From assembly GCA_943356745.1 (NCBI GenBank), contig CALRFT010000005.1, positions 1 through 54,771 on the forward strand: a DNA stretch of 54,771 nt, given 5' to 3'. Shown in pieces: positions 5,171-54,770 of this stretch; position 1 is the stretch's first letter, and the number at the start of each line of letters is the position of its first letter. Under the pieces are notes generated by a model that was not told where the DNA came from, ran no database searches, and worked only from the letters and a program-made list of their open reading frames with translations. Source of the stretch: Parcubacteria group bacterium (GTDB taxonomy: Bacteria; Patescibacteriota; Minisyncoccia; Phycocordibacterales; CSBR16-119). The position numbers and the translations under genes were made by a program.

Positions 5171-5174
5171 AAAT

Positions 5175-7068: not shown

Positions 7069-7097
7069 TTGACAAAATATATATAATATGATATAAA
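7069..7097 (+). promoter_or_regulatory. sigma70-type promoter
   Basis: TTGACA-17-TATAAA upstream of the 7125 ORF. Confidence 0.55.
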
Positions 7098-7124
7098 TAA
7101 ATCATAATTAAAACCCAGTTCATT

Positions 7125-7364: not shown

Positions 7365-7560
7365 ACACCGACGTCGCAATAGAAATTTCCTTGAAAGAAT
7401 TTGAAATTTCTTTAAAAACACTCAAGAAAGATGTTCGATTATTGTCGATAATATTTGGCAATTTCTTCATACTAATATAATACCCTAAAACCCCTATTTT
7501 CAAAACCTAATAGGATCTCTGTGTTTTGGTCAGATTTTGTATGAGATAGTAGGTTTTTGG

Positions 7561-7601
7561 GAACAAAAAATCCCCTTTGATATGAGGGGGATTTTTTGTT
7601 C
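7561..7601. terminator. long-stem hairpin terminator of the ACAAAAAATCCCC family
   Basis: GAACAAAAAATCCCC-N10-GGGGGATTTTTTGTTC. Confidence 0.7.
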
Positions 7602-7618
7602 TGCTTCACAAGTATAAC

Positions 7619-7647
7619 TTGACATAAATATATTAAGATTGTATATT
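7619..7647 (+). promoter_or_regulatory. sigma70-type promoter
   Basis: TTGACA-17-TATATT. Confidence 0.55.
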
Positions 7648-7673
7648 TATACTAAATTTAAATACATATTGTT

Positions 7674-7934
7674 ATGTTATCTACTCAAAAACTTTTGTTG
7701 CTACTGATCTTTTTTGTGAGTGTCCTTGTCTTATGTGTCTCTGTTGTTATTTGTCTTGAGATATTTTTTGATTTCGACATGCCGTGGATCACCATGAAAA
7801 CCAATGAATTTACTCTATTTGGACTTCGTATCTCTGAAGAGAAACAAAATGGTGTATTAATGGTTGTAGGGTCCCTCTTAACCATCTCAGTTCCAGCCAT
7901 CTCTTTTTCGGCATCGAGATTGAGGAAAAAATAA
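7674..7934 (+). CDS. small membrane protein, hypothetical
   Basis: Two hydrophobic helices, bracketed by a consensus promoter and a terminator. Confidence 0.5.
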   Translation: MLSTQKLLLLLIFFVSVLVLCVSVVICLEIFFDFDMPWITMKTNEFTLFGLRISEEKQNGVLMVVGSLLTISVPAISFSASRLRKK

Positions 7935-7946
7935 TAGAATTTTTTT

Positions 7947-7978
7947 AAAGTGTGTTCCAAAATGGAACACACTTTTTT
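7947..7978 (+). terminator. intrinsic terminator
   Basis: GTGTGTTCCA-AAA-TGGAACACAC followed by TTTTTT. Confidence 0.8.
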
Positions 7979-8003
7979 ATTACATTACTGCTTTATACAA
8001 AAA

Positions 8004-8034
8004 TAAAAAACCGGTAGCTTGTATAAGCTACCGG
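8004..8034 (-). terminator. intrinsic terminator of the 8056..8514 gene
   Basis: CCGGTAGCTT-GTAT-AAGCTACCGG, with a U-run on the minus strand. Confidence 0.8.
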
Positions 8035-8055
8035 CACGACTGCTTTACCATATGA

Positions 8056-8514
8056 TTATGGTTTGCCCTTCCAAACTAAGCAGTCGAAAGATTCTTGGTG
8101 GTATACCACGAGAATAATTTCATAAGAACACAGCTCCAAGATTTCTGCATTGTCTGGATCCACATCTATAAGATGAGTCTGGATGTCACTCCTCAATCCA
8201 AAGCCAAGGGTGTGATGAGGTAAACGTCTTTTTGGATTTTTGATAAAATCATCCACATGCTCTTTCCCTTCTTCTGTCTCTGAATCTATCATAAGCACAA
8301 TGTAGAAATTGGCATCTTTTCGAAGATTTTCAAAATCTCCGAGAATTTTAGCGATCGCACCAAAATTCTCATTCAAAAGATTTTGCAATGCCTCAAAATG
8401 TTCTTGATCAATTTGCTCAAAATGCTCCGGAACCCCTAGAAAAAATACTCCCTCTTGAATACTGCAAGTGACATACTGTGTTTCAAGTTCTTTTTGGTCT
8501 TTATTTTCTTCCAT
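8056..8514 (-). CDS. acidic cytoplasmic protein, hypothetical
   Basis: 152-aa ORF with its own TTGACA-16-TATTGT promoter (8542..8569) and terminator. No family recognised. Confidence 0.6.
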   Translation of the reverse strand: MEENKDQKELETQYVTCSIQEGVFFLGVPEHFEQIDQEHFEALQNLLNENFGAIAKILGDFENLRKDANFYIVLMIDSETEEGKEHVDDFIKNPKRRLPHHTLGFGLRSDIQTHLIDVDPDNAEILELCSYEIILVVYHQESFDCLVWKGKP

Positions 8515-8584
8515 GTAAGTAACAGGTATTGGTTTACATATACAATACTGAATATTTCGATTTTGTCAAAGGATTCTGGAATGT

Positions 8585-8613
8585 TTGACAGAAATATAGA
8601 AAAATGCTATAAA
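8585..8613 (+). promoter_or_regulatory. orphan sigma70-type promoter
   Basis: TTGACA(8585-8590)-17-TATAAA(8608-8613). No downstream plus-strand ORF. Confidence 0.5.
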
Positions 8614-8619
8614 CGACAC

Positions 8620-8720
8620 GAAGATTACTCAAGGTTGGCAAAGGTTATTGGTTGACGCCTTGGGTAAGTCGGTTTTTACAGAATAGGGAAAGGCCGAAGC
8701 GTAGCTTCGGCCTTTTTTTA
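8620..8720 (+). ncRNA. candidate ~100-nt small RNA (promoter to terminator, no ORF)
   Basis: Runs from the orphan promoter to the hairpin AGGCCGAAGC-GTAG-CTTCGGCCT plus T7. The U-run is much better on the plus strand than on the gltX strand. Confidence 0.35.
8691..8720 (+). terminator. intrinsic terminator (also lies just 3' of gltX on the other strand)
   Basis: AGGCCGAAGC-GTAG-CTTCGGCCT followed by TTTTTTT. Confidence 0.75.
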
Positions 8721-8735
8721 TTTCCCTCAATTAAA

Positions 8736-10055
8736 CTATAGACTCTCTAGTACGGATTGTATTCTTTGAATTGTTTTTTCTTTTCCAATCACACTTGCAA
8801 CAAAAAATGGATTTGGAGATTTATCTTGTCCGGTAAGAGTATATCGAAGTGGCCACAGCACATCACCCTTCCCCACCTCTTCAGCATAATCCCAAACTAA
8901 ATTTTTTACAGATTCTTCAGTTTCAAAATCAGAATCTTCTGCCTTGTTACATAATTCCAAAACATGAGAAAGATGTTTTTTTGCATCTTCCAAGGTTGAT
9001 TGTTTCCAAATTATTTTTGATAGATCTGTGATTTTTGGATTTTCGATATAGTATGAAAATTCTCCAGCCTGATACATATCAACAATTTCCTTTCCATACG
9101 AAACTCGCTCCACCAAAAGAGTTCTTATCTTAAGATACAGTTCCTCAGAAATTTCTTGAGGTAGGAATTTTTTGAAATATATATCGAGCTCGCCATCTGA
9201 AAGTTTTTTCAAATGTTCTTTGTTGATCCAGAAAAGTTTTTGAATATTGTACACACTTCCCTTTTTCTGAACCTTGTCGAGAGAAAAAGCTTGTACGAGT
9301 TCTTCTTTGGTAAATATCTCTCTTTCGTCTCCCGGATTCCAGCCAATCATCGCCATGAAGTTGATGAGCGCATCAGGCAAAATTCCCATTTCTCGATACT
9401 CAGTCACAGGATAGACACTTGGATCACGTTTTGACATTTTGCCTCCTCCTTCGCTTAAAATAAGCGGAATATGAGCATATAAAGGACGGGTAAACCCAAG
9501 CGCTTCAAGAATGAGAATCTGCCGCGCTGTATTTGAAATGTGATCTTGCCCACGAATCACATGAGATACCTCTGAAAGACCATCGTCAATCACCACCGTA
9601 AGATGATACAGTGGTGAATTCATATTTCGTGCAATCACAAAATCTCCAAGCTCCTCTGTGTTGAAAGTAATATCTCCGAGAATTAGATCATGGAAAGTTA
9701 CATCAATATTTGGATTTTTGAAACGAATCACCTTTCCGCCTTCGTCTCCTGAAGATTCCTCTGCTTCATATGCATGTCCTGAGAGAATGAGTTTGTTGAT
9801 ATGTTCGATATAGATATCAGTGCGGTCACTTTGTCTATAAAAAGCATCGTGTTCTAAACCGAGCCAAGCAAGCGCCTCAAGCATGTTTTCTTCAAATTCT
9901 TTTTTACTTCTTTCCTTGTCTGTGTCTTCAGAACGTACAATAAATACACCCTCGTTTTGACGAGCAAAGAAATAGTTATATAAAGCTGTTCGAAGTCCTC
10001 CAATGTGGAATTTTCCCGTTGGAGAAGGAGCTATTCTTGTGACAATTTTTGACAT
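8736..10055 (-). CDS. gltX: glutamyl-tRNA synthetase (short form)
   Basis: RIAPSPTGKFHIGGLRTALYNY (HIGH region) and KMSKRD (KMSKS). Confidence 0.92.
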   Translation of the reverse strand: MSKIVTRIAPSPTGKFHIGGLRTALYNYFFARQNEGVFIVRSEDTDKERSKKEFEENMLEALAWLGLEHDAFYRQSDRTDIYIEHINKLILSGHAYEAEESSGDEGGKVIRFKNPNIDVTFHDLILGDITFNTEELGDFVIARNMNSPLYHLTVVIDDGLSEVSHVIRGQDHISNTARQILILEALGFTRPLYAHIPLILSEGGGKMSKRDPSVYPVTEYREMGILPDALINFMAMIGWNPGDEREIFTKEELVQAFSLDKVQKKGSVYNIQKLFWINKEHLKKLSDGELDIYFKKFLPQEISEELYLKIRTLLVERVSYGKEIVDMYQAGEFSYYIENPKITDLSKIIWKQSTLEDAKKHLSHVLELCNKAEDSDFETEESVKNLVWDYAEEVGKGDVLWPLRYTLTGQDKSPNPFFVASVIGKEKTIQRIQSVLESL

Positions 10056-16017: not shown

Positions 16018-16020
16018 CAA

Positions 16021-16048
16021 AAAGCCGCGACGAAGTCGCGGCTTTCTT
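16021..16048 (+). terminator. intrinsic terminator
   Basis: AAAGCCGCGAC-GAA-GTCGCGGCTTT. The same hairpin recurs at 21978. Confidence 0.8.
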
Positions 16049-19005: not shown

Positions 19006-19006
19006 T

Positions 19007-19058
19007 GTTTAAGAAACCAAAAGAGTCGCGCGAAGCGCGACTCTTTTTTCTTTATATT
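19007..19058 (+). repeat. 52-nt terminator module, copy A
   Basis: GTTTAAGAAACCAAAAGAGTCGCGCGAAGCGCGACTCTTTTTTCTTT. Near-identical copy at 19503..19554, with a compensatory stem change. Confidence 0.8.
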
Positions 19059-19124: not shown

Positions 19125-19508
19125 ATGCACCCTATGGTTCGTTCTTTGTTTAAAGCAAAAAAAGCAACAAAAAAACCCGAAACAAAAAAGAAAGAATTCC
19201 CTGTGATTCTGACTCTGTCAGACATTACCAAAAAGCCGACATTGTCTCTCTCGAGAGAATCCAATGTCTACTATCATTTTTCTGTTTCAGCGCCCACTCA
19301 TGGGAAGCTACCTTCAAAAATTCGAAAAGGTAAAAAAACATTACCTTTCCCTTCCCAAATCAGAATCAAGAAAGGAAGATTCCAAATGCAAGGTAAAGTT
19401 GGCGATTCTATTCAGGGAACCATTTCATGGGATGGTTCAAAATTCAGAAATCCTGAAGCAAAAACTTTTGTTGTTACAGCAACCAAGAAAAAACTGCAGG
19501 TTGTTTAG
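19125..19508 (+). CDS. basic (Lys-rich) hypothetical protein
   Basis: 127-aa ORF with a consensus promoter, TTAAAACCC 9 nt before the ATG, and its own terminator. Confidence 0.6.
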   Translation: MHPMVRSLFKAKKATKKPETKKKEFPVILTLSDITKKPTLSLSRESNVYYHFSVSAPTHGKLPSKIRKGKKTLPFPSQIRIKKGRFQMQGKVGDSIQGTISWDGSKFRNPEAKTFVVTATKKKLQVV

Positions 19509-19554
19509 GAAACCAAAAGAGTCGCACGAAGTGCGACTCTTTTTTCTTTTTCTA
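19503..19554 (+). repeat. 52-nt terminator module, copy B
   Basis: GTTTAGGAAACCAAAAGAGTCGCACGAAGTGCGACTCTTTTTTCTTT. The G-C pair of copy A is replaced by A-T, so the stem is preserved. Confidence 0.8.
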
Positions 19555-21427: not shown

Positions 21428-21979
21428 TTGGCATCACAATCCAGATATGGATCTTTTATTCTATATTTTGTTTCGTGTATTGAATCAATCTTTTTCCCTA
21501 TTCCGCCGGATTTTCTCATGATTCCAATGGTTGTCAGTAAGTCATCTTCATGGAAAAAACTAGCACTCGGGGTAACTATATTTTCAATAGTTGGAGCCTT
21601 CATTGGATACCTCATTGGTTCAGTTTTTTTTGATACTGCTGGACAATGGATCATGAATACCTATTCACTCCAAGATGAATTTCAAACCGTTCAAAATTTT
21701 TATCAACAAAATGCATTTTGGAGTATCATCGTTGCAGGATTCACACCAATTCCCTACAAGGTATTCACCATTACTTCAGGAATGTTTGATGTAAATCTTT
21801 TTATCTTTTTTATTGCAAGTATTATTGGACGAGGAGCTCGATTTTTCTTGGTTGGATATCTTGCGAGTGTGGGAGGCAATCAAGCTTTTTGGTCATATCT
21901 CAAAAAACTTAAACTTTCAACTTGGATTATAATTGCAATTGTTTCTCTCTTTTTTGGATACTGGTTTTTGATCAAATAA
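21428..21979 (+). CDS. YqaA/DedA-related (VTT-domain) membrane protein
   Basis: ...CIESIFFPIPPDFLMIPM... and ...GFTPIPYKVFTITSG... motifs. TTG start. Confidence 0.72.
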   Translation: MASQSRYGSFILYFVSCIESIFFPIPPDFLMIPMVVSKSSSWKKLALGVTIFSIVGAFIGYLIGSVFFDTAGQWIMNTYSLQDEFQTVQNFYQQNAFWSIIVAGFTPIPYKVFTITSGMFDVNLFIFFIASIIGRGARFFLVGYLASVGGNQAFWSYLKKLKLSTWIIIAIVSLFFGYWFLIK

Positions 21980-22006
21980 AAAAGCCGCGACGAAGTCGCG
22001 GCTTTT
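21978..22006. terminator. bidirectional intrinsic terminator
   Basis: AAAAAAGCCGCGAC-GAA-GTCGCGGCTTTT. Confidence 0.8.
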
Positions 22007-33599: not shown

Positions 33600-34160
33600 A
33601 TGGCCATGAACAACAAAAAGACTAATATTCAAGAAAAGATATTAAGCTTTCTCCACGGTAAAAAGGCGGTAAATAAGGAAATGCTTCACGAAGAGCTCGA
33701 AAACGATTTTGGGGCTGATTTTGAGGCTTCCACAAAGCCTAAATATGCTATAAACCGAAGCCTCAAGACTCTTTCTGAGTCTGGCTTTGTGGAAGAGATA
33801 GAAACCCCAAATTCTTCTTTTGTGCGAATCACTCCAGAAGGTCGTCACAAGCTCCGAAACCTCAAACTCTCTTCCCCAACCTCTTTGGTTTCGACAAGTT
33901 GGGATGGGTACTGGCGAATGGTTATGCTCGATCTTCCGGAGTCACGAAAAAGTGAACGAAACTCCCTTCGATACATTTTGAAAAAAGCTGGCTTTGTGAT
34001 GCTCAAAAATTCTGTCTGGGTTTCTCCCTATCCGCTTGAACATCTTTTTATGAATATTAAAAAAGATATGGGACTCGCCACAGAAATCACAATTCTCGTA
34101 ACACAGCTGATTGATCCAGAAACTGAGCAAGAGCTTGTTAAGTTGTTTGGATTGAAATAA
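33600..34160 (+). CDS. PaaX-family-like transcriptional regulator (wHTH + WDGxWR...PE module)
   Basis: N-terminal winged-helix-like segment, then WDGYWRMVMLDLPESRKSERNSLRYILKKAGFVMLKNSVWVSPYP. Confidence 0.65.
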   Translation: MAMNNKKTNIQEKILSFLHGKKAVNKEMLHEELENDFGADFEASTKPKYAINRSLKTLSESGFVEEIETPNSSFVRITPEGRHKLRNLKLSSPTSLVSTSWDGYWRMVMLDLPESRKSERNSLRYILKKAGFVMLKNSVWVSPYPLEHLFMNIKKDMGLATEITILVTQLIDPETEQELVKLFGLK

Positions 34161-34189
34161 AAAAGCCGTCGCGAAGCGACGGCTTTTTG
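34159..34189. terminator. bidirectional intrinsic terminator
   Basis: AAAAAAGCCGTCGC-GAA-GCGACGGCTTTTT. Confidence 0.8.
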
Positions 34190-40154: not shown

Positions 40155-41294
40155 TTATTGTATTACCTTTATACTTGTAAAAGCAGCGTATATCATCAAT
40201 TTAAAGTCTGGTTCTAGAATTTTTGCACTCAAGAAAGGTTGGAGTGCTTCTGCATTCATTAGTATAGCATGCAAATTTTTGTCTGATACTGAAAGATGTT
40301 TATTTCTTGGATCTTCTAATGCATTCTTAATCCAGAAAAATGTTGTTGGTTTGGAAATTACTACACAATGTTCTGGAAGTGGAATATTTTTTGTAACTTC
40401 CTGAAGAGAAGAAACAAAGTGTCTTCTCCACTCTTCTTGAACATTTGATACTGTTTTCCGAAGACCCAAAGATGCGTTCTGGTGCATAGTTCCTTGATTG
40501 AGAGTTTTAAGCTCAGAAAGAATAATATCTGGATGAATATTTTGTTCCCCTGCTTTTGAGAAAATGAGATGTTCACCACTCAAGATAACCTCTCCGTGAA
40601 CAAGCGAACCTTGATTGATGATTGAAACTTCACTATACAAACCTTCAATCGAAACTAAAACAAAATTATCAAGATATTGAAACGCATCTCGACTCACCAC
40701 GGACTGCACCAGCATTGAAGTATGGAAATAGATATCTTTTGATGTATGTCTTTCTATTGTATTTTGAAGTATTTGTTTAATATCTTTCCCCACAAGACTC
40801 ACGTAACTTGAAACTTCCACTCGTCTTGTATATTCTTTTTTGAAATCATGAATCTCGTATCCATTAATTCCAATATGAAGAATATTTTTTTCAAGAATCT
40901 CAAAATCTCCTTGATCTTTGTAGGTATTATAAAAATCTTGAACAGTATCTTTGAGAATCTTTTTTACATCTCTTTCCCGAAATACAAACGGAGCTTCTTC
41001 GTCTCGAATATAAGTATCCATGTGAGATATGTACCACGGAGAAGAAAGCACACAGAGAACCTGATCTATTTTTGTTGGTTTTTTTTGAATAAGTGCACTA
41101 ATTGCAAGATCAAGAGTCTTACTAATGTTTTGAATTGAATAGTGGTCACCCTGAACAGTTTGAATATGTTGTGCGATGATATATGGTTTTTGATGATCTG
41201 AAACATTTACAAAACAGGTTCGAATATGCGAACTTTCAACACTTATCACAAGATGGTTTTGCGATGTTGGTTTTTTTGAACCAAAGAAAAACAT
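40155..41294 (-). CDS. hypothetical protein, possibly a divergent actin-fold (PilM/FtsA-like) protein
   Basis: N-terminus MFFFGSKK...LVISVESSHIR resembles the PilM/FtsA phosphate-1 region, but the DxG is replaced. 379 aa. Weak call. Confidence 0.4.
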   Translation of the reverse strand: MFFFGSKKPTSQNHLVISVESSHIRTCFVNVSDHQKPYIIAQHIQTVQGDHYSIQNISKTLDLAISALIQKKPTKIDQVLCVLSSPWYISHMDTYIRDEEAPFVFRERDVKKILKDTVQDFYNTYKDQGDFEILEKNILHIGINGYEIHDFKKEYTRRVEVSSYVSLVGKDIKQILQNTIERHTSKDIYFHTSMLVQSVVSRDAFQYLDNFVLVSIEGLYSEVSIINQGSLVHGEVILSGEHLIFSKAGEQNIHPDIILSELKTLNQGTMHQNASLGLRKTVSNVQEEWRRHFVSSLQEVTKNIPLPEHCVVISKPTTFFWIKNALEDPRNKHLSVSDKNLHAILMNAEALQPFLSAKILEPDFKLMIYAAFTSIKVIQ

Positions 41295-41347
41295 GTACTT
41301 GTATTATATCACGCAAAATAAAAAACAGGGTTTTCCCTGTTTTTTAT

Positions 41348-43117
41348 TTATTCCAATACTGCTTTGATTCTTCGAATACCAGCACTTGAAGCTTCTTCTT
41401 TTTGGATTTTAAATGTTCCGAGTGTGTTTGTATTTTCCACGTGTGGACCACCGCAAATTTCGAGTGAGTACATTTCATCTCCATTTCCGATTTGATACAA
41501 GGTTACAGTTTCTCCGTACTTGTCACCAAAGAGTCCAAGAGCACCCTTGTTTCGAGCGTCTTCGAGCGGAACTTCTTGGAAAGAAATCGGAAGACTATCT
41601 TTGATTTTCTCATTTACAATTTGTTCTACTCGTTTGATTTCTTCTGGTGTCATTTTCTCATTGTGAGAAAAATCAAATCGAAGTCGCTCTGGTGTGATGT
41701 TTGATCCTTTTTGGAATACATGATTTCCCAAAACATCTCGAAGTGCCTGATGCAAAAGATGAGTTGCTGTGTGGTATTTTACTTCCATGTCTGAATGACC
41801 AGCAAGACCTCCTTTGAATTTTTGTTCTGCGCCGAGTCGTGATTTATCTTGGTGTTCTTTCATCTTTGAATGGAAATCATTTTCATCAATACTTTCGCCT
41901 CGAGAAAATGCAAGCTCTTTTACCATCTCAAAAGGAAAACCATATGTTGTGAAAAGAATAAAAGCATCTCGCTCACCTTTTTCAAATTCCTTCAACCCAG
42001 AAATCAAAGTCTTTTCAAACTTTGCAATTTCATCTTGAAACACAACAACGCTTTGAGCTTGCATTGTTCCATACACAGAATCATATTGCTTTTGAATCAA
42101 AACAAAGATATCTGCCAATTTTTCAAATGGAATTTCAATTTTTTGTGCGTTCACCATCGCTCGACGAATAATTCTTCGCAAAATATATCCTCGGTCTTTA
42201 TTACTTGGAACAACACCATCAGAAATCAAAAACATTGAGGCTTTGATGTGGTCAGCAATAATTCTTGCACTTATTCCTTGGTACATGAGTGCATCTTTTT
42301 TAATTGATTCCAAAATATCTGAAAACAAATCTGTTTCAAACACATTTGTTTTTCCTTGCACCACCATTGTCACACGTTCAAGTCCTGCACCTGTGTCTAC
42401 GTTTTGTTTTGGAAGTGGACCAACAACCTTTCCAGCTTTTTGCTCAAAAGCCATAAATACATCATTCCAAATCTCAACAACTTTTTGTTCGTCGTCTGCT
42501 TTCAAAAATTCTTCATGAGTAAGTCCGTCAACAAGAGTTCCTGTGACATCATAAAACATTTCTGTACTTGGACCCGCCGGAGAATCTGGTCCCGCTGTCC
42601 ACCAATTACTTTTTGAAGAAAGATAGAAAATTCTTTTTTCAGGATCGAGTCCGTGTTCGTTAAAGATAGCTCGCCAAATACCCGCTGCTTCTTCATCTCG
42701 AGCAACATTTTCATTCCCCGCAAAAACTGTTACATAGAGTCTATTGATATCAAGTCCGAGTCCTTCATCCTTTGAGGTAAGAAATTCAAAACTCCATTTG
42801 ATTGCATCTTCTTTAAAGTATGTTCCAAGAGACCAGTTTCCAAGCATTTCAAAAAATGTGAGATGAGTATTGTCACCCACTTCTTCAATGTCATTTGTTC
42901 GCACGCATTTTTGTGAACTTGCCAGCTTTCCACCTCCTGGATGTTCTTCACCAAGAAGGTATGGAATAAGAGGTTGCATTCCTGCAGTATTAAAAAGTGT
43001 TGCGTTTGTTTGTCCTTTTTCATCGGTAGTTACCAAAGAAGCCGAAGGAAGCACTGTGTGTTCCCGCTTTTCAAAAAAGTCCAAAAACCGCTTTCGTATT
43101 TCATTACTTGTTAGCAT
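41348..43117 (-). CDS. alaS: alanyl-tRNA synthetase, short form ending after the editing domain
   Basis: MLTSNEIRKRFLDFFEKREH..., editing-domain HTATHLLH and CGGPHV motifs. Start reset to the ATG at 43117. The 14 codons upstream belong to the repeat/terminator element. Confidence 0.92.
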   Translation of the reverse strand: MLTSNEIRKRFLDFFEKREHTVLPSASLVTTDEKGQTNATLFNTAGMQPLIPYLLGEEHPGGGKLASSQKCVRTNDIEEVGDNTHLTFFEMLGNWSLGTYFKEDAIKWSFEFLTSKDEGLGLDINRLYVTVFAGNENVARDEEAAGIWRAIFNEHGLDPEKRIFYLSSKSNWWTAGPDSPAGPSTEMFYDVTGTLVDGLTHEEFLKADDEQKVVEIWNDVFMAFEQKAGKVVGPLPKQNVDTGAGLERVTMVVQGKTNVFETDLFSDILESIKKDALMYQGISARIIADHIKASMFLISDGVVPSNKDRGYILRRIIRRAMVNAQKIEIPFEKLADIFVLIQKQYDSVYGTMQAQSVVVFQDEIAKFEKTLISGLKEFEKGERDAFILFTTYGFPFEMVKELAFSRGESIDENDFHSKMKEHQDKSRLGAEQKFKGGLAGHSDMEVKYHTATHLLHQALRDVLGNHVFQKGSNITPERLRFDFSHNEKMTPEEIKRVEQIVNEKIKDSLPISFQEVPLEDARNKGALGLFGDKYGETVTLYQIGNGDEMYSLEICGGPHVENTNTLGTFKIQKEEASSAGIRRIKAVLE

Positions 43118-43126
43118 GGGACTAGT

Positions 43127-43185
43127 ATACAAAATTTCCCTCTTTCCGACCAGAGCCACAAAAAATCCCCTTGTGAGGGGATTTT
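43127..43185 (-). repeat. 59-nt direct repeat, left copy (terminator hairpin + promoter-proximal segment)
   Basis: ATACAAAATTTCCCTCTTTCCGACCAGAGCCACAAAAAATCCCCT-TGTG-AGGGGATTTT. 45 + 10 nt are identical to 45234..45292; only the 4-nt loop differs. Confidence 0.9.
43156..43185 (-). terminator. intrinsic terminator after the repeat-protein gene
   Basis: Minus-sense AAAAUCCCCU-CACA-AGGGGAUUUU followed by UUGUGG. Confidence 0.7.
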
Positions 43186-43188
43186 AAT

Positions 43189-44214
43189 TTAAGCTGCCAA
43201 AATTTCTTGGCATTTTTCGTTGAGAACAGACTGAATTGAAGAAGGTTGACTTTTAAGAGTTTGTGTCTTTACAAAAACAGAAAACCAGTCCGGTATATGT
43301 TCTTTTGAAACAAGAGAAATCAACTCCATCATCCGAATTTCGATTTGTTTTTCAAGATAAGATCCATCCGTTGAATCTTCAAATCGTTTTTGTAAGATTT
43401 GATAGTTGGTCTCATCTTCATTCAACTTCATCATTCGAATTTCGATTTGTTTTGAAATGTCGGAATCAGAATGTGTGTTGTCTAGTCGTTCTTGTAAGAT
43501 TTGATAGTTGGTCTCATCTTCATTCAACTCCATCATTCGAATTTCGATTTGTTTTGAAATGTCGGAATCAGAAGATGTCTTATATAGTCGTTTTTGTAAG
43601 ATTTGATAGTTGGTCTCTGTCTTATTCAACTCGATCATTCGAATTTCGATTTTTTTTGCAAGATAAGATCCATCCGTTGAATCTACCCACCGTTCTTGTA
43701 AGATTTGATAGTTGGTCTCTGTCTTATTCAACTCGATCATTCGAATTTCGATTTGTTCTCTAAGGTCTGAACCCAAAGCTGTGTTGTCTAGTCGTTCTTG
43801 TAAGATTTGATAGTCAACAATCTTCGGGAGTTGTTCCTTATTCAACTCCATCATTCGAATTTCGATTTGTTTTTCAAGGTCGGAATCAGAAGATATGTTG
43901 TCTAGTCGTTCTTGTAAGATTTGGTAGTTAGCAATCTTCGGAAGTTCTTCCTTATTCAACTCGATCATTCGAATTTCGATTTGTTTTTCAAGGTCTGAAC
44001 CAGAAGGTGCGTCGCATAGTCGCTCTTGTAAGATTTGATAGTTAATCTCTGTCTTATTCAACTCGATCATTCGAATTTCGATTTGTTCTCTAAGGCCTGA
44101 ACCCAAAGGTGCCTTGTCTAATCGTTCTTGTAAGATTTGATAGTTAATCTCTTCTGAAATAGGTAAATTTTTGATACCTAAAAAAGATTTAATCTGTTTT
44201 TCTAAAGTGCTCAT
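43189..44214 (-). CDS. tandem-repeat protein: 8 x 34/38-aa helical repeats with a hypervariable loop
   Basis: Repeats have the form NYQILQ(E/K)R(L/W/F)-xxxxxx-S(D/G/Y)(L/I)xxQIEIRM(I/M)ELN-linker. No family recognised. Own TTGACA-16-TAATGT promoter at 44242..44269. Confidence 0.75.
   Translation of the reverse strand: MSTLEKQIKSFLGIKNLPISEEINYQILQERLDKAPLGSGLREQIEIRMIELNKTEINYQILQERLCDAPSGSDLEKQIEIRMIELNKEELPKIANYQILQERLDNISSDSDLEKQIEIRMMELNKEQLPKIVDYQILQERLDNTALGSDLREQIEIRMIELNKTETNYQILQERWVDSTDGSYLAKKIEIRMIELNKTETNYQILQKRLYKTSSDSDISKQIEIRMMELNEDETNYQILQERLDNTHSDSDISKQIEIRMMKLNEDETNYQILQKRFEDSTDGSYLEKQIEIRMMELISLVSKEHIPDWFSVFVKTQTLKSQPSSIQSVLNEKCQEILAA
43318..44145 (-). repeat. in-frame 102/114-bp tandem DNA repeats (8 units)
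   Basis: Repeated strings such as TCGAATTTCGATTTGTTT... / CGTTCTTGTAAGATTTGATAGTT are visible every 102-114 nt. Confidence 0.85.
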
Positions 44215-44280
44215 TTTATTGTATTATTTATGTTTTGTTTTACATTACACTAATTATCAAACATGTCAATGTTATAAGAG

Positions 44281-44319
44281 TCACAAAAAATCCCCTTGTG
44301 AGGGGATTTTTTGTGGCTC
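44281..44319 (-). terminator. intrinsic terminator after the SET-fusion gene (third copy of the hairpin)
   Basis: CACAAAAAATCCCCT-TGTG-AGGGGATTTTTTGTG. Confidence 0.8.
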
Positions 44320-44329
44320 TTTTTTGTTT

Positions 44330-45223
44330 TTATATATCTTCAGTTAATTTTTTTATATATCCATTTTTCTTCATTTCATCAAATAAAATCCAATCCGCCG
44401 TATAGTCAATATATTTTTTCTTAAATTCTGAAGGAAGATCCCTCCAGGGTAAAATCTTACCTAAACATTGTTGAGACCCACATAAACAAACACCTTCAGG
44501 ATTTTTCCAATCTGAATTACAAAACAAACTATAACAATATGTTAACTCTTCACCTGGGTGTATGTCTCTTAAGGTTGTGACAAAAAATAAATCTTTAACA
44601 TAACAATTGGGTTCACAAGAATGATTGAGTTTAACTGCATTTGTATTAAATCCATTTCTATAGAAATATTTATGAAAAGGAACGGCATGATCAGCTGCGT
44701 AAATGAATACCTGAGATTCTTTTTCTGCGAAATGAATTTGTCCATCAACATAAGAAATCTGGGTTTCTGCAGGAATAAAATCTTTTGCAAAAACACCAGA
44801 ACCTTTTTCGTCTGTTGTTAATATTTCAACTCTATTATCTTCTTGATATGTTAAAGGATCCGGTATTTCATGATATGAGAAATTTTTCATATCAAATTCT
44901 TTTATTACAAAATCTATAGCTTGCTTTGTGTCAAATTGTTTGCATGAGTAAATATCTACTGTTGCAAAATTTGAATTAGTCCAAACATAAGTACTCACAC
45001 CTGACTCTGCCCACACTAAAGTACCTTCAAATCCATCATGCAATGGGACGCTTTTTCCAGTGGCACTTGATATAAAAGGTCCCGCAATAATCGTCATTTC
45101 CAATTCTTGAGATAGTCTTCTCAAAAAAGAATCAACAAAATCTTCTGATTTTATTTCCTTTTGAAATAAACCTTCGATAATTAAACGTTTTCTGAAAATA
45201 TTTTTTGCTAAATTCGAATTCAT
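44330..45223 (-). CDS. fusion protein: AdoMetDC (SpeH/SpeD)-like N-terminal domain + SET + post-SET lysine methyltransferase domain
   Basis: N-terminus ...GFEGTLVWAESGVSTYVWTNSNFATVDIYSCKQ... follows the pyruvoyl AdoMetDC core pattern. C-terminus has GSGVFA, NHSCEPNC, ELTYCY and CLCGSQQC. ATG at 45223 (MNSNL) has TATGAT 7 nt upstream. Alternative ATG at 45235. Confidence 0.78.
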   Translation of the reverse strand: MNSNLAKNIFRKRLIIEGLFQKEIKSEDFVDSFLRRLSQELEMTIIAGPFISSATGKSVPLHDGFEGTLVWAESGVSTYVWTNSNFATVDIYSCKQFDTKQAIDFVIKEFDMKNFSYHEIPDPLTYQEDNRVEILTTDEKGSGVFAKDFIPAETQISYVDGQIHFAEKESQVFIYAADHAVPFHKYFYRNGFNTNAVKLNHSCEPNCYVKDLFFVTTLRDIHPGEELTYCYSLFCNSDWKNPEGVCLCGSQQCLGKILPWRDLPSEFKKKYIDYTADWILFDEMKKNGYIKKLTEDI

Positions 45224-45233
45224 GTAGTTAATC

Positions 45234-45292
45234 ATACAAAATTTCCCTCTTTCCGACCAGAGCCACAAAAAATCCCCTCACGAGGGGATTTT
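45234..45292 (-). repeat. 59-nt direct repeat, right copy
   Basis: Same sequence as 43127..43185 except the loop is CACG rather than TGTG. Confidence 0.9.
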
Positions 45293-45300
45293 TTGTGGCT
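45263..45300 (-). terminator. intrinsic terminator of gdhA
   Basis: GCCACAAAAAATCCCCT-CACG-AGGGGATTTTTTGTGGC. Confidence 0.8.
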
Positions 45301-45316
45301 TTTTTACCTGTTCTTT

Positions 45317-46555
45317 TTATTTCCTTCCTCGAAGTCTCATTGCTTCATAGAGTCTGTGTACCGCCAGAAGATATGCCGCGCCTCGAAGTGACGACATGTA
45401 CTTCTTTTGATAGTTCATTACCTCATGAAGTGAATCAACCATGATTACTTTGAGTTTTTCCTGAACCTCAGTAAGTGACCAATAGTATTGCTGTCTATTT
45501 TGTACCCATTCAAAATAAGAAACTGTCACCCCACCTGCATTTGCGAGAACATCTGGAATTACAACAATACCCTTTGATTCAAAAATCTTATCTGCTTCTG
45601 GAGTTGTTGGTCCGTTTGCAAGCTCGAGTACAATTTTTGCTTTCACTTGACCTGCGTTATCTTCTCGAAGTTGGTTATCGAGCGCTGCTACCACAAGCAC
45701 ATCACATGGGAGTAAAAGAAGTTCTTCATTTGTGACTGAGTTGAGTTTGAGTCCTTCTCCGAGTTTTTTTCCTTCTTCTTTGTTTTTCATCACAAGAGCA
45801 GGATCAAATCCAGCGTCACTCCACACACCGCCTGTTGAGTCGGAAACTCCGATGATTGAATGTCCTGCTTTATGAAGAATTTCCGCCGCAACTCCCCCAG
45901 CGTTTCCAAGTCCTTGAATAACAATCTTTTTTGGCTTTACACCTCCCTCTACTTTTTCAAGATATGTGTGAAGTACATAGACACCACCTTGTGCTGTTGC
46001 TGTATCGCGCCCGAGTGAACCACCAAGCACAATCGGTTTTCCAGTAATCATTCCTGGCTCATTTTTTCCAATCACCTTTTCATACTCATCAAGCATCCAC
46101 GCCATTGTTTGTCCATTTGTGTACACATCTGGCGCTGGAATATCTTTATCCACCCCAAGATACGGAGCCATCTCTCGTGCAAATGCTCGAGATACTTGCT
46201 CCAAATCTGCCTCAGTATATTCTTTTGGATTGATAGTCACACCACCTTTTGCTCCACCAAGAGGAATTCCAACAACCGAACATTTGATCGCCATTCCTGC
46301 AGCAAGAGCACTGACTTCGTCCAAATCTGCTTCATGATGAAAACGAATTCCACCCTTGTATGGACCACGTGCGTTGTTGAATTGAACACGATAGGCTGGA
46401 AAAGATTTTTTTCCTTTTGATGTTTCAACTTCCAAAGTTTTCTCCACAATATTTTCTGGAGTGAGAAGAAGCTTTGTAATGTGAGAATCAAGTTTCAAAA
46501 TCTGTGCCGCACTATCTATTCTTTTTTGTATATTTTCAAATGGTGTGTTTTTCAT
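45317..46555 (-). CDS. gdhA: Glu/Leu/Phe/Val-family glutamate dehydrogenase
   Basis: KGGIRFH and PLGGAKGG motifs plus a Rossmann GLGNAGG. Confidence 0.93.
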   Translation of the reverse strand: MKNTPFENIQKRIDSAAQILKLDSHITKLLLTPENIVEKTLEVETSKGKKSFPAYRVQFNNARGPYKGGIRFHHEADLDEVSALAAGMAIKCSVVGIPLGGAKGGVTINPKEYTEADLEQVSRAFAREMAPYLGVDKDIPAPDVYTNGQTMAWMLDEYEKVIGKNEPGMITGKPIVLGGSLGRDTATAQGGVYVLHTYLEKVEGGVKPKKIVIQGLGNAGGVAAEILHKAGHSIIGVSDSTGGVWSDAGFDPALVMKNKEEGKKLGEGLKLNSVTNEELLLLPCDVLVVAALDNQLREDNAGQVKAKIVLELANGPTTPEADKIFESKGIVVIPDVLANAGGVTVSYFEWVQNRQQYYWSLTEVQEKLKVIMVDSLHEVMNYQKKYMSSLRGAAYLLAVHRLYEAMRLRGRK

Positions 46556-46636
46556 AACTTTTCAATTATACCACCCAGGGCAAACAAGGGCTTTTGAAAA
46601 ACCAAAATAAAACTTTATTAATGATTTGTAAATAAA

Positions 46637-46668
46637 AAAAACCATTTCGCTTAAGCGAAACGGTTTTT
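46637..46668 (-). terminator. intrinsic terminator
   Basis: AAAACCATTTCGC-TTAA-GCGAAACGGTTTT. Confidence 0.75.
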
Positions 46669-46673
46669 AATAA

Positions 46674-47243
46674 TTATTTAGGAACACACGCAAAGTACCA
46701 CTTAGTACTCCAATTTTTCTCACGGTAAGCCACTCCCTTACAAGGTTTTTTACGATCAAAATATGCAAAAGCAGCATAACATGTATTACCATTTTCATCT
46801 CGCCACTGAGTGGCATTTGGATAATCCATAGCTAGTAACATCTCTTGCTCATTTAAATCACACAGAGTTACAAAGTCAACAAGCTTAAAACCAATATCAT
46901 CTATTCGCTCCTCAAGTTCGATAGGTGAAAGCTCTTCCCTGAAAGGAATAAGGTACACCTTCACCTTTTTGGCTTTTGCTTTTGGTGCAGCAAGTAAGAC
47001 ATCGTGATTGTAACCCTCTGAAACTGTTATAGAATTAATTGAATACCAAGCATCTTGAGGACTCAGAGTGGTGTCAACTTTAATTATTCGAGTTAGCTGA
47101 TTATCAACAAACACTTTCAAAGTGTCCACCGAAGGTGTTTGCCCCAACTGTTCTTCAGCAATTGTAGCCACGGTTTGTTTTTCTGTAGATTCTGCATTAC
47201 AACTTACAATACAGAGTGAGATAAAAATAATTAAGTATTTCAT
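46674..47243 (-). CDS. putative lipoprotein, hypothetical
   Basis: Signal peptide with a lipobox-like LCIVSC. Cys-containing C-terminal domain. Confidence 0.62.
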   Translation of the reverse strand: MKYLIIFISLCIVSCNAESTEKQTVATIAEEQLGQTPSVDTLKVFVDNQLTRIIKVDTTLSPQDAWYSINSITVSEGYNHDVLLAAPKAKAKKVKVYLIPFREELSPIELEERIDDIGFKLVDFVTLCDLNEQEMLLAMDYPNATQWRDENGNTCYAAFAYFDRKKPCKGVAYREKNWSTKWYFACVPK

Positions 47244-47332
47244 AGGACTGGATTTAAATTTACACGAAAGATATCATATAATATAATATATGTCAAGTAC
47301 TTTATTTAAAATATATTCCTTAATGTGAACAG

Positions 47333-47362
47333 AAAAAGCCGCGACAAATGTCGCGGCTTTTT
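47333..47362 (-). terminator. intrinsic terminator
   Basis: AAAAAGCCGCGAC-AAAT-GTCGCGGCTTTTT. Confidence 0.8.
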
Positions 47363-47376
47363 CTGTTCCTTTTTCA

Positions 47377-48459
47377 CTAAACTATTATCCCTCCTCCCAC
47401 ACACTGCTCTCCATCGTAAACCACAATAGACTGCCCTGGTGAAAAGGTATCTTGTTCTTGTTCAAACAGTACCATTGCTTGATTCTCCTTTCCTCGAACA
47501 ATAGTACAGTGTATTGGAATTTGATTGTAACGAATTGAGGCAGAGTATTTTTTACCAAACTCAATTGGGTGATTCCACACTGTATGTGCAATTCTAATTT
47601 CTTTTGGATTTGTGAATTTTTTTCTATCTGAAACCTCTGGCGAAACCGTAATGGTGTTTGATTCGAGATTTTTATCCACCACATACAAAGCTTTGTCACT
47701 TGTTCCCTTTTTTGTAATAGTGAATCCATGTCGTTCCCCAAAGGTAAAGAAAAGTGCTCCATCATGAACTCCGATTTCATTATTGTTTGTATCCAAAACC
47801 TTTCCTTCTTGCTTTGGAATATAATGCTGAAGAAAATCTTTCATATCAATCTCACCAAGAAAACAAACTCCTTGTGAGTCTTTTTTTGTTGCAGTAAACA
47901 AACCATTCTTCTCTGCAATTTTTCGCACCTCGTCTTTTGGAAGATGTCCTATTGGAAACAAAATGTGTTTAAGCTGTTCTTGCGAAAGAGTCCACAAGAA
48001 ATAACTTTGATCTTTTTTCTGATCGAGACCTTGAAGAAGTTTAACCTTTCCGTTTGCCTCCACGCGACGCGCATAGTGACCAGTTGCAACAAAATCCGCA
48101 CCAAGCTCTTTTGCCTTTTTGAGAAAGATTCCAAACTTCACTTCTTTGTTGCACATGACATCCGGGTTTGGAGTTCTTCCTTTTCGATATTCCTCAATCA
48201 TATACTCACCAACTTTTTCTTTATATTCTTTCTCGGCGTCGATGGTAATAAACGGAATTCCAAGATGAGCACAGACACGCATAGCATCGCGTCTTTCTTC
48301 GCGCCAAGTACATTGGATAAAATCTGGCTGCCAAGTTTTGATAAAAGCACCAACAACATTGTAACCTTCACGTTGCAAGAGAAAAGCCGCAACCGATGAG
48401 TCAACACCGCCTGACACCCCGACAAATACTGTTGGTTTTTTGTTCATGTCTTTAATCAT
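47377..48459 (-). CDS. mnmA: tRNA 2-thiouridine(34) synthase
   Basis: VFVGVSGGVDSSVAAFLL PP-loop and the overall MnmA pattern. Confidence 0.93.
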   Translation of the reverse strand: MIKDMNKKPTVFVGVSGGVDSSVAAFLLQREGYNVVGAFIKTWQPDFIQCTWREERRDAMRVCAHLGIPFITIDAEKEYKEKVGEYMIEEYRKGRTPNPDVMCNKEVKFGIFLKKAKELGADFVATGHYARRVEANGKVKLLQGLDQKKDQSYFLWTLSQEQLKHILFPIGHLPKDEVRKIAEKNGLFTATKKDSQGVCFLGEIDMKDFLQHYIPKQEGKVLDTNNNEIGVHDGALFFTFGERHGFTITKKGTSDKALYVVDKNLESNTITVSPEVSDRKKFTNPKEIRIAHTVWNHPIEFGKKYSASIRYNQIPIHCTIVRGKENQAMVLFEQEQDTFSPGQSIVVYDGEQCVGGGIIV

Positions 48460-53609: not shown

Positions 53610-53649
53610 GTATAAAGGAAAACGAGAAAACTAGAAAGGAGGAATTGAA

Positions 53650-53731
53650 AAACAAAAAAGCGATTCCTTTCGGAATCGCTTTTTCACACTAGCTACACCG
53701 TAGCTTGTGTGAGTTCTTTTCTTTCTTTTTT
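53650..53731 (-). repeat. 82-nt duplicated 3' module (last 13 codons + stop hairpin + terminator), copy A
   Basis: Three differences from 54339..54420. Contains AAAAAAGCGATTCC-TTTC-GGAATCGCTTTTT plus a second hairpin spanning the stop codon. Confidence 0.85.
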
Positions 53732-54262
53732 CTTCAGCCAAAGGTAGCGGAAGACGTAGGATGTAACACAGGATGCGATGATGAATGCAGCATCAACAGC
53801 AACACCAACAGCAGCAGCAAGTATATACACAAACAAAAGATACCTAGTCTTTTCTTTTGGAATTGAGATGCTAGATAGCAGCAAAAAACCAAACGGTAAT
53901 ACCATACAAAAAATAAGGTAGTACCAGCTCATTACTGGTGGTGATTCTTTCAGTACAGATTGTTCTACATTTCCATTTTGAATGGAGAAACCTTGTACAA
54001 CTTCTGAGAACATAGGCGGGAAAAGCTGAGTCATTTTTTGTGTACTTCTTAACACTACTCCTCCCTGAAAGAGAATTGCTTTTTCTCTATCGTCGAAGGT
54101 AACGCCTGTATAGTTGGTGAAAGATAATCTCTCGATAACTCGCGTCTCTTTAATAGTTGCTGTAATAACACCAGCAGAGTCTATGTAGGTTATTTCTGTT
54201 TGTGCTTGTAATACACAAGAAAAGAGAAAGAAAGATAAGAAAATAAATATTAGATTTTTCAT
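53693..54262 (-). CDS. membrane protein with signal/lipobox-like N-terminus, hypothetical
   Basis: ATG at 54262 (MKNLIFIFLSFFLFSC...), a ~100-aa external domain, TM helices, and tail LKKKERKELTQATV. Confidence 0.6.
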   Translation of the reverse strand: MKNLIFIFLSFFLFSCVLQAQTEITYIDSAGVITATIKETRVIERLSFTNYTGVTFDDREKAILFQGGVVLRSTQKMTQLFPPMFSEVVQGFSIQNGNVEQSVLKESPPVMSWYYLIFCMVLPFGFLLLSSISIPKEKTRYLLFVYILAAAVGVAVDAAFIIASCVTSYVFRYLWLKKKERKELTQATV

Positions 54263-54338
54263 AGGGCAAAATGGTTTTTGTTCCCATTGAAAATAAAGTA
54301 TTTTTATAGATTTGTCAAACAAAATCCATGTTTAGAAT

Positions 54339-54420
54339 AAACAAAAAGCGATTCCTTTCGGAATCGCTTTTTCACACAAGCTACACCGTAGTTTGTGTGA
54401 GTTCTTTTCTTTCTTTTTTT
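54339..54420 (-). repeat. 82-nt duplicated 3' module, copy B
   Basis: See 53650..53731. Confidence 0.85.
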
Positions 54421-54770
54421 TTGAATTGCCACTGTCTCAAAATGAATGAGACGATGCAAGATAGAACAATGAAGACAATGTATTGGTTTCCTAAGGTTTT
54501 GTCAACAGCAGAGACAAAAGCGACACCAGCAACAGTAAGAATAATTGTGATAATAGAAAGGAAAGCAATGGCGCCAGCGAAGACATCAGCACTAACACTA
54601 ACAATAATAGCTATACTAGCCATAATAGCAGCAGCAGCAACAGCATAATCAACAGCGATAACAGCAGCAATGGCGGAAATGGCAGTAATAACAAAAGTGG
54701 CGCCAGTAGCAGTAAGAACACTGATGTAGGACAAGATAATATTTCTTGTTTTTACCTTTTTTTGCAGGGA
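54381..54770 (-). CDS. Ala/Ile/Val-rich polytopic membrane protein, hypothetical; 5' end probably beyond window edge
   Basis: The frame is open from the window edge (SLQKKVKTRNII precedes the listed TTG). Tail FKKKERKELTQTTV is shared with the neighbouring gene. Confidence 0.5.
   Translation of the reverse strand, partial: SLQKKVKTRNIILSYISVLTATGATFVITAISAIAAVIAVDYAVAAAAIMASIAIIVSVSADVFAGAIAFLSIITIILTVAGVAFVSAVDKTLGNQYIVFIVLSCIVSFILRQWQFKKKERKELTQTTV

Follow-up and report, generated by a model that had tools for sequence, protein, structure and literature searches.

The genomes of the candidate phyla radiation (CPR), or Patescibacteria, are tiny and tightly packed, and how genes are gained and lost in them is poorly understood. 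Two described systems come closest to the locus reported here. The minimal mobile elements (MMEs) of Neisseria (Saunders & Snyder 2002; Snyder et al. 2007), in the definition excerpted from PMC3787668, hold variable genes between one conserved flanking pair, contain no mobility genes and are presumed to be exchanged by homologous recombination through the flanks. Integration hotspots without mobile genetic elements were described in a statistical study of 80 species (Oliveira, Touchon, Cury & Rocha 2017, PMC5635113) and combine gene turnover between core genes with raised divergence and recombination in the flanks, in the absence of any recognisable mobile element. Here we analyse 54,771 nt of a Parcubacteria group bacterium (GenBank assembly GCA_943356745.1, contig CALRFT010000005.1, positions 1 to 54,771; hereafter the window), in which two accessory genes lie between gdh, encoding a Glu/Leu/Phe/Val dehydrogenase, and alaS, encoding a short alanyl-tRNA synthetase (AlaRS). 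One encodes a fusion of an S-adenosylmethionine decarboxylase (AdoMetDC)-like domain with a SET domain, the other a repeat protein, and both are bounded by copies of a hairpin, H, which in two of its copies is followed by a 25-nt segment, X. We consider it probable that the gdh-alaS intergenic region is an integration hotspot free of mobility genes, in which a duplicated terminator-promoter module would serve both as expression adaptor and as recombination homology.

The locus shares with MMEs and with the hotspots a content that differs between the same two flanks, in six slot states on a collinear backbone, and an absence of mobility genes from the annotated surroundings of the variable region. 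It differs from MMEs in that each cargo lies between copies of a duplicated terminator-promoter module, 38-72 nt long, which also supplies expression signals, in that the module copies evolve in concert, and in that the organism belongs to the CPR. Duplicated terminator-promoter repeats as cassette boundaries are likewise not described in the hotspot study. What is new with respect to both systems is the duplicated, co-evolving module as cassette boundary and expression adaptor in a CPR bacterium.

Relatives of the locus were collected by AlaRS protein search as a graded series of 77-98% AlaRS identity; all compared sequences are metagenome assemblies, and three haplotypes carry the H+X module. 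The backbone (yceG, an RNase T-like gene, mnmA, gdh, alaS, two conserved unknown genes, infA, rpsM onward) is otherwise collinear, and the content of the slot changes from one relative to the next. Both the fusion gene and the repeat-protein gene are present in the window, the repeat-protein gene alone in L169 and L170 (AlaRS 98% identical), and the fusion gene alone in L087, L088 and a third contig (95%). The slot holds a 154-aa open reading frame (ORF) in L171 (91%), a 160-aa and a 113-aa ORF in L172-L174 (86%), and 370 nt with no gene called in L175 (77%). Near-identical genomes therefore display three of the four possible combinations of the two cassettes. L169 and L170 are about 96% identical to the window over a shared 8.4 kb and lack the fusion gene from the slot. 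In BLASTN, positions 4807-4878 of L169 align both to the gdh end with the first hairpin of the window and to the end of the fusion gene with the second, so that the window corresponds to L169 plus about 915 nt, with the breakpoints inside the hairpin. In L169 the repeat-protein module likewise lies within a duplication, here of about 38 nt (AAAATCCCCT, loop, AGGGGATTTTTTGTGGC(C/T)CTGGT). Since each gene stands alone in a close relative, the two are separate modules, and the single two-gene cassette proposed in a first-pass annotation of the window has to be given up; the repeat-protein module has a promoter of its own as well as its own hairpin duplication.

No integrase or transposase was found near the slot in the precomputed Pfam annotations, which cover the genes between the fusion gene and alaS and roughly 10 kb beyond each of the two, upstream of the former and downstream of the latter. 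A Pfam scan of the five slot and flanking proteins gave no mobility domain, nor did NCBIfam and PADLOC for the cargo, and ARAGORN found no tRNA or tmRNA gene in the window.

The outermost copies of the module in the window share a direct repeat of 59 nt (43127-43185 and 45234-45292) that is identical at 56 of 59 positions. The first 45 and last 10 nt are the same in both, and all three mismatches fall within a 4-nt loop that reads TGTG in one copy and CACG in the other (plus strand). A third copy, comprising the hairpin only, separates the two cargo genes. The hairpin pattern occurs at three sites in the 54,771 nt, all of them in the slot, where 100 shuffles gave an expectation of 0; the 40-nt portion of the repeat outside the loop occurs exactly twice, again with 0 expected by shuffling. 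No further hairpin copy exists elsewhere in the 54.7-kb window, and among 175 fetched loci X is found at the slot only.

Read on the coding (minus) strand, the gdh-proximal and the middle hairpin each consist of a stem of 18-20 bp with a U-tract after it, and the corresponding fragments fold with -34 kcal/mol (z -5.0) and -32.7 kcal/mol (z -7.0). In the alaS-proximal hairpin the 3' end of the repeat-protein ORF has taken the place of the outer half of the 5' arm, which leaves a 10-bp stem (-19 kcal/mol, z -1). Each hairpin begins 3-20 nt past a stop codon. With their GC-containing stem-loops and U-tracts, the hairpins are predicted by terminator scan and folding to be intrinsic (Rho-independent) terminators, strong ones in the gdh-proximal and middle copies. 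Rfam (E <= 1, 41000-47500) returned no known RNA family in the repeat, giving sub-threshold matches typical of generic terminators.

The loops (43172-43175, 44297-44300 and 45279-45282 in the window, about 4852 and 5983 in L169) differ in almost every copy and genome: they are CGTG, CACA and CACA in the window (coding strand), AACA and TATA in L169, and GCAA and GTGA in L088. This variation contrasts with the identical stems and flanks and with surrounding DNA that is 93-96% identical. The gdh-proximal loop resembles an inverted form of the others, and the pattern suggests loop hypermutation or flipping of the palindrome.

The anatomy set out in the first-pass annotation is confirmed: the coordinates and loop-only differences of the 59-nt repeat are reproduced, and the hairpin-only copy lies between the cargo genes, at 44277-44320. 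Terminator scan, folding and sequence agree with its order of terminator hairpin and -10-like hexamer 6-7 nt before the start codon. The starts it gave for alaS (43117) and the fusion gene (45223) coincide with N-termini conserved in homologues (MLTSNEIRKRF... and MNSNLAxxIFRKRL...), the N-terminal extensions it had called spurious are the repeat read in two frames, and Pfam confirms the identities of gdh, alaS and the fusion gene. It had also asked whether the repeat is dispersed; the window and the 175 loci give no sign of this, and the genome-wide part of that question concerns DNA beyond the window, which is about 10% of a 518,649-bp metagenome contig (ENA ERZ27280302).

Table 1. Positions in the window of the genes, module copies and putative start signals of the gdh-alaS slot.
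Feature	Position	Strand	Remarks
gdh (Glu/Leu/Phe/Val dehydrogenase, 412 aa)	45317-46555	-	Pfam ELFV_dehydrog, ELFV_dehydrog_N; conserved upstream flank, beside the slot in all relatives
Fusion gene, cargo 1 (AdoMet_dc-like + SET, 297 aa)	44330-45223	-	Pfam PF02675 6e-14, PF00856 1.5e-13
Repeat-protein gene, cargo 2 (341 aa)	43189-44214	-	Eight units of 34 or 38 aa (102 or 114 nt)
alaS (short AlaRS, 589 aa)	41348-43117	-	Pfam tRNA-synt_2c, tRNA_SAD; conserved downstream flank
Module copy 1, gdh-proximal	45234-45306	-	Full gdh terminator hairpin and segment X
Stem of copy 1	45261-45300	-	Loop CGTG on the minus strand
Segment X of copy 1, 25 nt	45234-45258	-	GGTCGGAAAGAGGGAAATTTTGTAT on the minus strand
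Module copy 2, middle	44277-44320	-	Hairpin only; stem of about 20 bp with one mismatch, loop CACA; putative fusion-gene terminator
Module copy 3, alaS-proximal	43127-43185	-	10-bp stem, loop CACA, then segment X at 43127-43151
Native -10 hexamer of alaS, TATACT	43124-43129	-	6 nt before ATG; repeat boundary TAT|ACT
-10-like hexamer of the fusion gene, TATGAT	45231-45236	-	7 nt before ATG; straddles repeat boundary TAT|GAT
Putative sigma-70-type promoter of the repeat-protein gene	44242-44269	-	TTGACA 44264-44269, 16-nt spacer, TAATGT 44242-44247

On the minus strand a full copy of the module runs from H through X (GGTCGGAAAGAGGGAAATTTTGTAT) and a unique stretch of 9-10 nt to the ATG. The sequence AAATTTTGTATACTAGTCCC-ATG upstream of alaS is kept exactly or nearly so in the loci of all seven relatives, down to 77% AlaRS identity. 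X precedes alaS in every relative examined and hence belongs there natively; it is the copy ahead of the fusion gene that is derived. The repeat ends inside the -10 hexamer, which is recreated at each junction 6-7 nt before the ATG: besides the two boundaries given for the window in Table 1, the fusion gene of L087 has TAT|TAT. We infer that X is a promoter for a leaderless or nearly leaderless transcript. The repeat-protein gene has a different arrangement, and its putative promoter also precedes the orthologue in L169. The spacing of hexamer and ATG at alaS and the fusion gene is usual for this genome: over the whole window a Shine-Dalgarno-like site is present in 1 of 50 genes, and many first genes after terminators have an extended -10-like [TG]nTAnnnT just 6-9 nt before the ATG; these observations suggest that leaderless or near-leaderless mRNAs are widespread in this organism.

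The fusion-only relatives show how the module copies change with time. A 72-nt repeat flanks the fusion gene on both sides in L087, where it is perfect (72/72), and in L088, where 70 of 72 positions are identical and the differences are confined to the loop. The architecture is that of the window, whereas the sequence differs (hairpin GCCGAAAAAATAACCCTTGCAAGGGTTATTTTTTCGGC, X GGTCGGAATCATTCAAATTTTGTAT): between the window and L087 the module copies are 73-77% identical, with compensatory stem changes, and within a genome they are 95-100% identical. Had an old duplication drifted independently in each copy, about 17 within-genome differences would be expected; none is observed in L087 and three, all in the loop, in the window. 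Either gene conversion homogenises the copies, then, or the duplication has been made anew in each lineage, and conversion is favoured, given that gdh has diverged to a similar extent as the fusion gene and that the junctions lie at the same positions. Between the window and L087/L088, identity amounts to 77.7% for the fusion ORF, 82% for gdh, 86-91% for alaS and 93-94% for the downstream core genes. This fall in identity toward the slot, seen among three haplotypes, is suggestive of allelic exchange through the flanking genes.

The insertion of the fusion gene appears from these comparisons to be old, since the gene occupies the same place in the L087/L088 lineage even though the two versions are only 78% identical. 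The earlier idea that a gdh-terminator-promoter-alaS junction was duplicated around accessory DNA holds at its core, and the earlier interpretation as a whole is supported in part. The native position of X and the variants in L169/L170 and L087/L088 agree with it; a recent, one-off event does not agree with the divergence of the fusion gene and of the 72-nt repeat.

Away from the slot the fusion gene has many homes. Outside the window, L087 and L088, and apart from the pair L005 and L006, nucleotide homology stops at the ends of the fusion ORF, which gives at least nine different neighbourhoods; the neighbours differ at every locus, and no conserved cassette partner was found. The fusion units of L005 and L006 are identical over 1,176 nt and stand in unrelated contexts, with boundaries at GCTC|C in L006 (7249-9132). 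In L003, L005 and L090 the gene adjoins the 3' end of a convergent tRNA (tRNA-Ser, tRNA-Asn and tRNA-Glu, respectively). A 43-nt repeat consisting of a terminator and the last 7 nt of tRNA-Ser brackets it in L003, and L005 has a perfect 182-nt repeat that starts with a copy of the tRNA-Asn 3' end. We considered whether flanking repeats are a universal feature of the fusion gene and rejected this, as about 10 independent contexts include 3 with significant repeats: the gdh-alaS slot and L003, where they lie in the immediate flanks, and L005, where the repeat is distal and encloses two genes.

The L005 locus (CP064958.1, Ca. Nomurabacteria, 543324-560217) merits a description of its own. At about 536-9202 small genes appear to form an array of at least 11 cassettes, in which the fusion gene is accompanied by AHSA1, TauE, HD_4, glyoxalase, cyclase and unknowns, with an imperfect hairpin GCTCCGAAC...GTTCGGAAG, that is GCTCCGAAC-(3..27 nt)-GATGTTCGGAAG, in every intergenic gap. 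The hairpin keeps to one strand whatever the orientation of the genes, and its AAC...GTT cores and bulged A recall integron attC sites. The array abuts tRNA-Asn, with three copies of a 16-mer from the tRNA 3' end in addition to the 182-nt repeat. No integrase is present beside it within the visible 8 kb, where the array runs off the locus; walking leftward led to an 81% homologue (L185) whose region has neither the hairpin element nor an integrase. Neither the window nor any other fusion locus tested contains the element.

We propose the following course of events for the slot. In the clade of the window the resident module, consisting of the gdh terminator H and the alaS promoter X, would have been duplicated each time cargo settled. 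The fusion ORF would have arrived essentially without signals of its own, the upstream H+X ending gdh transcription and supplying a promoter that stops 6-7 nt before the ATG, so that the transcript is probably leaderless or nearly so. The downstream copy of the module would terminate the fusion ORF and restart alaS, making the insertion transcriptionally neutral for the neighbours. The repeat-protein gene, by this account, brought its own promoter and duplicated the hairpin only. Once present, the copies would act as portable homology of about 40-70 nt, through which recombination, presumably of the RecA type, could delete cassettes, re-insert them (Campbell-type) or stack them; the two-gene arrangement of the window may have arisen when a fusion-only haplotype and a repeat-only haplotype crossed over in H. 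Gene conversion would keep the copies alike within a genome while lineages diverge, and the growing divergence toward the slot would be accounted for if whole slot alleles are exchanged via the core genes on either side. Candidates for the first duplication are template switching at the palindrome, single-crossover entry of a one-module circle, or a short tandem duplication followed by insertion.

Several points weigh against this scheme. It needs a first duplication of 38-72 nt, for which the routes just named are no more than candidates. The empty allele that the first-pass annotation had expected (gdh-H-X-alaS, with a single module) was not found among the relatives examined, although its other expectation, that cargo should vary among relatives rather than the same two genes recurring everywhere, did hold. 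The loops differ within a genome (CGTG and CACA in the window, AACA and TATA in L169), which implies that conversion is infrequent or skips the loops. Most other homes of the fusion gene (L004, L006, L007, L089, L091, L102 and L184) have no flanking repeat, and duplication is hence not obligatory for movement of the gene. Finally, with about a tenth of the contig inspected, the hairpin could still be dispersed genome-wide, and the support comes from assembled metagenome contigs.

Other explanations were weighed against the same evidence. It is conceivable, if unlikely, that the fusion gene was inserted independently in the window and L087 lineages, each time freshly duplicating H+X, so that the identical copies would be young rather than converted; fork stalling at the palindrome with template switching, or Campbell-type integration of a one-module circle, could provide the route. 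The mobility of the gene (at least nine neighbourhoods, and the identical unit in L005 and L006), the recurrence of terminator duplications with other cargo and at other sites, and the different cassette-specific leaders (GATTAACTAC in the window, TATTTACAT in L087) all speak for such insertions. The shared slot, the shared repeat end (TTTTGTAT|) and the nearly identical start after the stop codon would, however, need site specificity or strong selection, and a gdh divergence (82%) close to that of the fusion gene (78%) fits a block inherited together. A Campbell-type single crossover leaves an insert bracketed by direct repeats equal to the shared homology, from which loop-out excises it precisely. 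Loop-out of this kind matches the difference between the window and L169; a circular intermediate was not observed.

We regard as distinctly improbable that the hairpins are sites for a recombinase encoded elsewhere, be it integron-like or specific for hairpins or single strands, and that the slot is a small cassette array. An integron comprises the integrase IntI, an attI site and the promoter Pc, and its attC sites ('59-base elements') are imperfect hairpins with R''/R' cores (RYYYAAC / GTTRRRY) and extrahelical bases. The slot does resemble an array in its hairpin-gene-hairpin-gene-hairpin layout, its independently present or absent and mostly single-gene units and its promoterless fusion ORF, and the fusion gene of L005 does sit in a genuine-looking array with co-oriented imperfect hairpins. 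Yet H is a perfect A-tract/GC/T-tract palindrome of 18-20 bp (AGAGCCACAAAAAATCCCCT/AGGGGATTTTTTGTGGCTCT) without AAC/GTT cores or bulged bases, the cassette junctions have no common core, the co-duplicated X is ordinary alaS promoter DNA, and the L005 element does not occur in the window. Around the slot the precomputed Pfam annotations list no recombinase, nor is an IntI, attI or Pc seen in the annotated surroundings of about 10 kb on either side. Given the palindrome and the lack of IntI we do not consider the slot an integron array, and the agreement of the 59-nt repeat with the '59-base element' in length is a coincidence. A transposon or insertion sequence would have a target-site duplication of 2-14 bp, terminal inverted repeats and a transposase; with repeats of 38-72 nt, cassette ends free of terminal inverted repeats and no transposase, the cassettes are not transposons. 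The duplicated tRNA 3' ends in L003 and L005, and the position of L090 beside a tRNA gene, recall tRNA-targeted islands. The window repeat is instead a terminator plus promoter with no integrase seen nearby, and in the absence of any tRNA gene the window does not contain such an island.

Very unlikely, in our judgement, is a history of deletion only, in which the ancestor had both genes, relatives lost one or the other, and the repeats are unrelated similar terminators or REP-like copies. Presence and absence by themselves give no direction, other terminators do recur far apart in the window (an identical 27-mer at 16019 and 21979), and about 90% of the genome lies outside the inspected DNA. 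Against this, the repeat continues for 25 nt beyond the hairpin, in native alaS promoter sequence, and stops within the -10 box, distant relatives hold unrelated cargo or none, and the fusion gene has other homes elsewhere. Dispersed REP-like palindromes have many scattered intergenic copies; in the 54.7 kb inspected, about a tenth of the contig, the three copies are all in the slot, and IMG/VR has none. An assembly artefact, with two strain haplotypes chimerically joined at a shared hairpin, has hardly any likelihood. The source is indeed a MEGAHIT metagenome contig, and fusion-only and repeat-only haplotypes exist in other samples. Against a chimera stand a second contig (50-200 kb) with the same protein and the same neighbours, and the flank after the second hairpin (GTGACTCTTATAACA), which matches neither the L169 version nor X. 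Moreover, the fusion allele of the window is just 78% identical to the known fusion-only haplotype, and the repeat of L087/L088 is present in three independent assemblies. Integration into a hotspot by way of the duplicated module remains the reading that we prefer.

The fusion protein has about 64 full-length homologues (P0001-P0064), and all those with a named source come from candidate-phyla (Patescibacteria) lineages, namely Parcubacteria, Nomurabacteria, Moraniibacteria, Pacebacteria and 'Patescibacteria group'. Its AlphaFold model has a pLDDT of 87.5, and the modelled N-terminal domain matches the AdoMetDC proenzymes 1vr7, 2iii and 1tmi with TM-scores of 0.72-0.74 normalised to the target. 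The NCBIfam model SAM_DCase_Bsu gives 40 bits, below its cut-off of 75.65, so the equivalog level of SpeD is not reached. The putative pyruvoyl serine, in the presumed self-processing site WAE-S-G, is replaced by N or H throughout the subclade P0040-P0051, for which reason the domain may not always be a decarboxylase. In the SET domain the motif N200-H-S-C-x-P-N206 and the post-SET cysteines C246, C248 and C253 are invariant among homologues, and the domain has sequence and fold matches in the Protein Data Bank to MLL1, ASH1L, NSD1 and BurB, so resembling histone lysine methyltransferases as well as BurB. BurB is a methionine S-methyltransferase that converts Met to S-methylmethionine (PMC12542666). 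A two-step conversion by the fusion protein, from Met to S-methylmethionine and on to a decarboxylated sulfonium amine, is conceivable.

A metagenome scan with the N-terminal domain of the fusion protein added four true fusion loci, the loci L092-L168 having other architectures. Among the latter, relatives of the N-terminal domain without SET (25-50% identity, with a shared FRKRL motif) are present in many soil and freshwater JGI contigs. A scan of the genome collection with the full-length fusion alignment keyed on the generic SET motif, and 79 of its 80 loci were unrelated SET proteins; L007 was kept.

The repeat protein has no match in Pfam, NCBIfam or PADLOC and is very rare, with 32 representatives among 1.84 billion proteins; the L169 orthologue has 343 aa and 93.5% nucleotide identity. 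It is predicted to be all-helical, the single-sequence model (pLDDT 45) being usable for the helical-repeat character alone. Foreign composition, which the first-pass annotation had suggested as a check, barely marks the cargo: GC is 0.306 (z -1.8) in the fusion gene and 0.349 (z -0.5) in the repeat-protein gene, too weak a signal to retain this idea. A phage origin was rejected likewise, as IMG/VR contains neither a close fusion homologue nor a copy of the hairpin. So was a defence island, PADLOC giving no credible match for slot cargo (the lone match was UzuA, E 0.003, to the 154-aa protein of L171). A literature search found no paper describing an AdoMetDC-SET fusion or integron-like arrays in Patescibacteria.

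Contrary to the view that the cargo forms the sole accessory island of the window, other slots differ in content from relative to relative, namely those that separate the RNase T-like gene from mnmA and mnmA from gdh, and the one that follows alaS; by sequence comparison the gdh-alaS slot appears as one of several hotspots. Between mnmA and gdh there is a 189-aa ORF (window 46674-47243), a pair of 162 and 42 aa, or an ORF of 147 or 267 aa. After alaS there is a lineage-specific ORF of 125 aa (L087, 3416-3793, minus strand), 71 aa (L171, 7795-8010) or 298 aa (L172, 7866-8762), or none. The lineage-specific ORFs of these other slots match no family. Repeat-bracketed cargo also occurs elsewhere in the window: a 48-nt direct repeat containing a terminator (19006-19053 and 19502-19549; 94% identical, with a compensatory G-C to A-T stem change) brackets a basic ORF of 127 aa at 19125-19508. 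This ORF has its own TTGACA-17-TAATAT promoter sequence and runs into the downstream copy, where its stop codon lies. The signature of a duplicated terminator is repeated here, which suggests a general habit of the genome.

Two further repeats were noted. An 88-nt direct repeat (53647-53734 and 54335-54422, 93% identical) covers the last codons (KKKERKELTQxTV*) and the terminator of two adjacent minus-strand membrane-protein genes, and looks like a duplicated or recombined gene 3' end with its terminator. An identical 27-nt terminator hairpin, AAAAAGCCGCGACGAAGTCGCGGCTTT, occurs 6 kb apart at 16019-16045 and 21979-22005, with a third copy of 78% identity at 34160-34186; some terminators are therefore common to distant loci in this genome.

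The locus offers a sequence-level example of gene gain and loss in the CPR, between two genes of essential type, and the duplicated module would explain how an ORF without signals can be expressed without breaking alaS or gdh. Because its copies diverge in a coordinated way, concerted evolution of very short repeats, or else their repeated re-insertion, can be measured here. Two uncharacterised cargo families, the AdoMetDC-like and SET fusion and the rare helical repeat protein, are flagged as candidates for strain-specific functions in episymbionts. A wider reading, which we put forward as a speculation with rather little chance of proving right, is that hairpin-bounded, recombinase-poor 'plug-and-play' cassettes are a general way in which Patescibacteria acquire genes. 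Insertion may then duplicate the resident terminator, with or without the next promoter, and so wire the newcomer into transcription while essential neighbours stay undisturbed, and the copies may provide homology for excision, exchange and stacking of cassettes across the population. If this is true, such cassettes, together with the apparently new attC-like array that contains the fusion gene in L005, would constitute a CPR-specific cassette system that is integron-like in logic, not in sequence.

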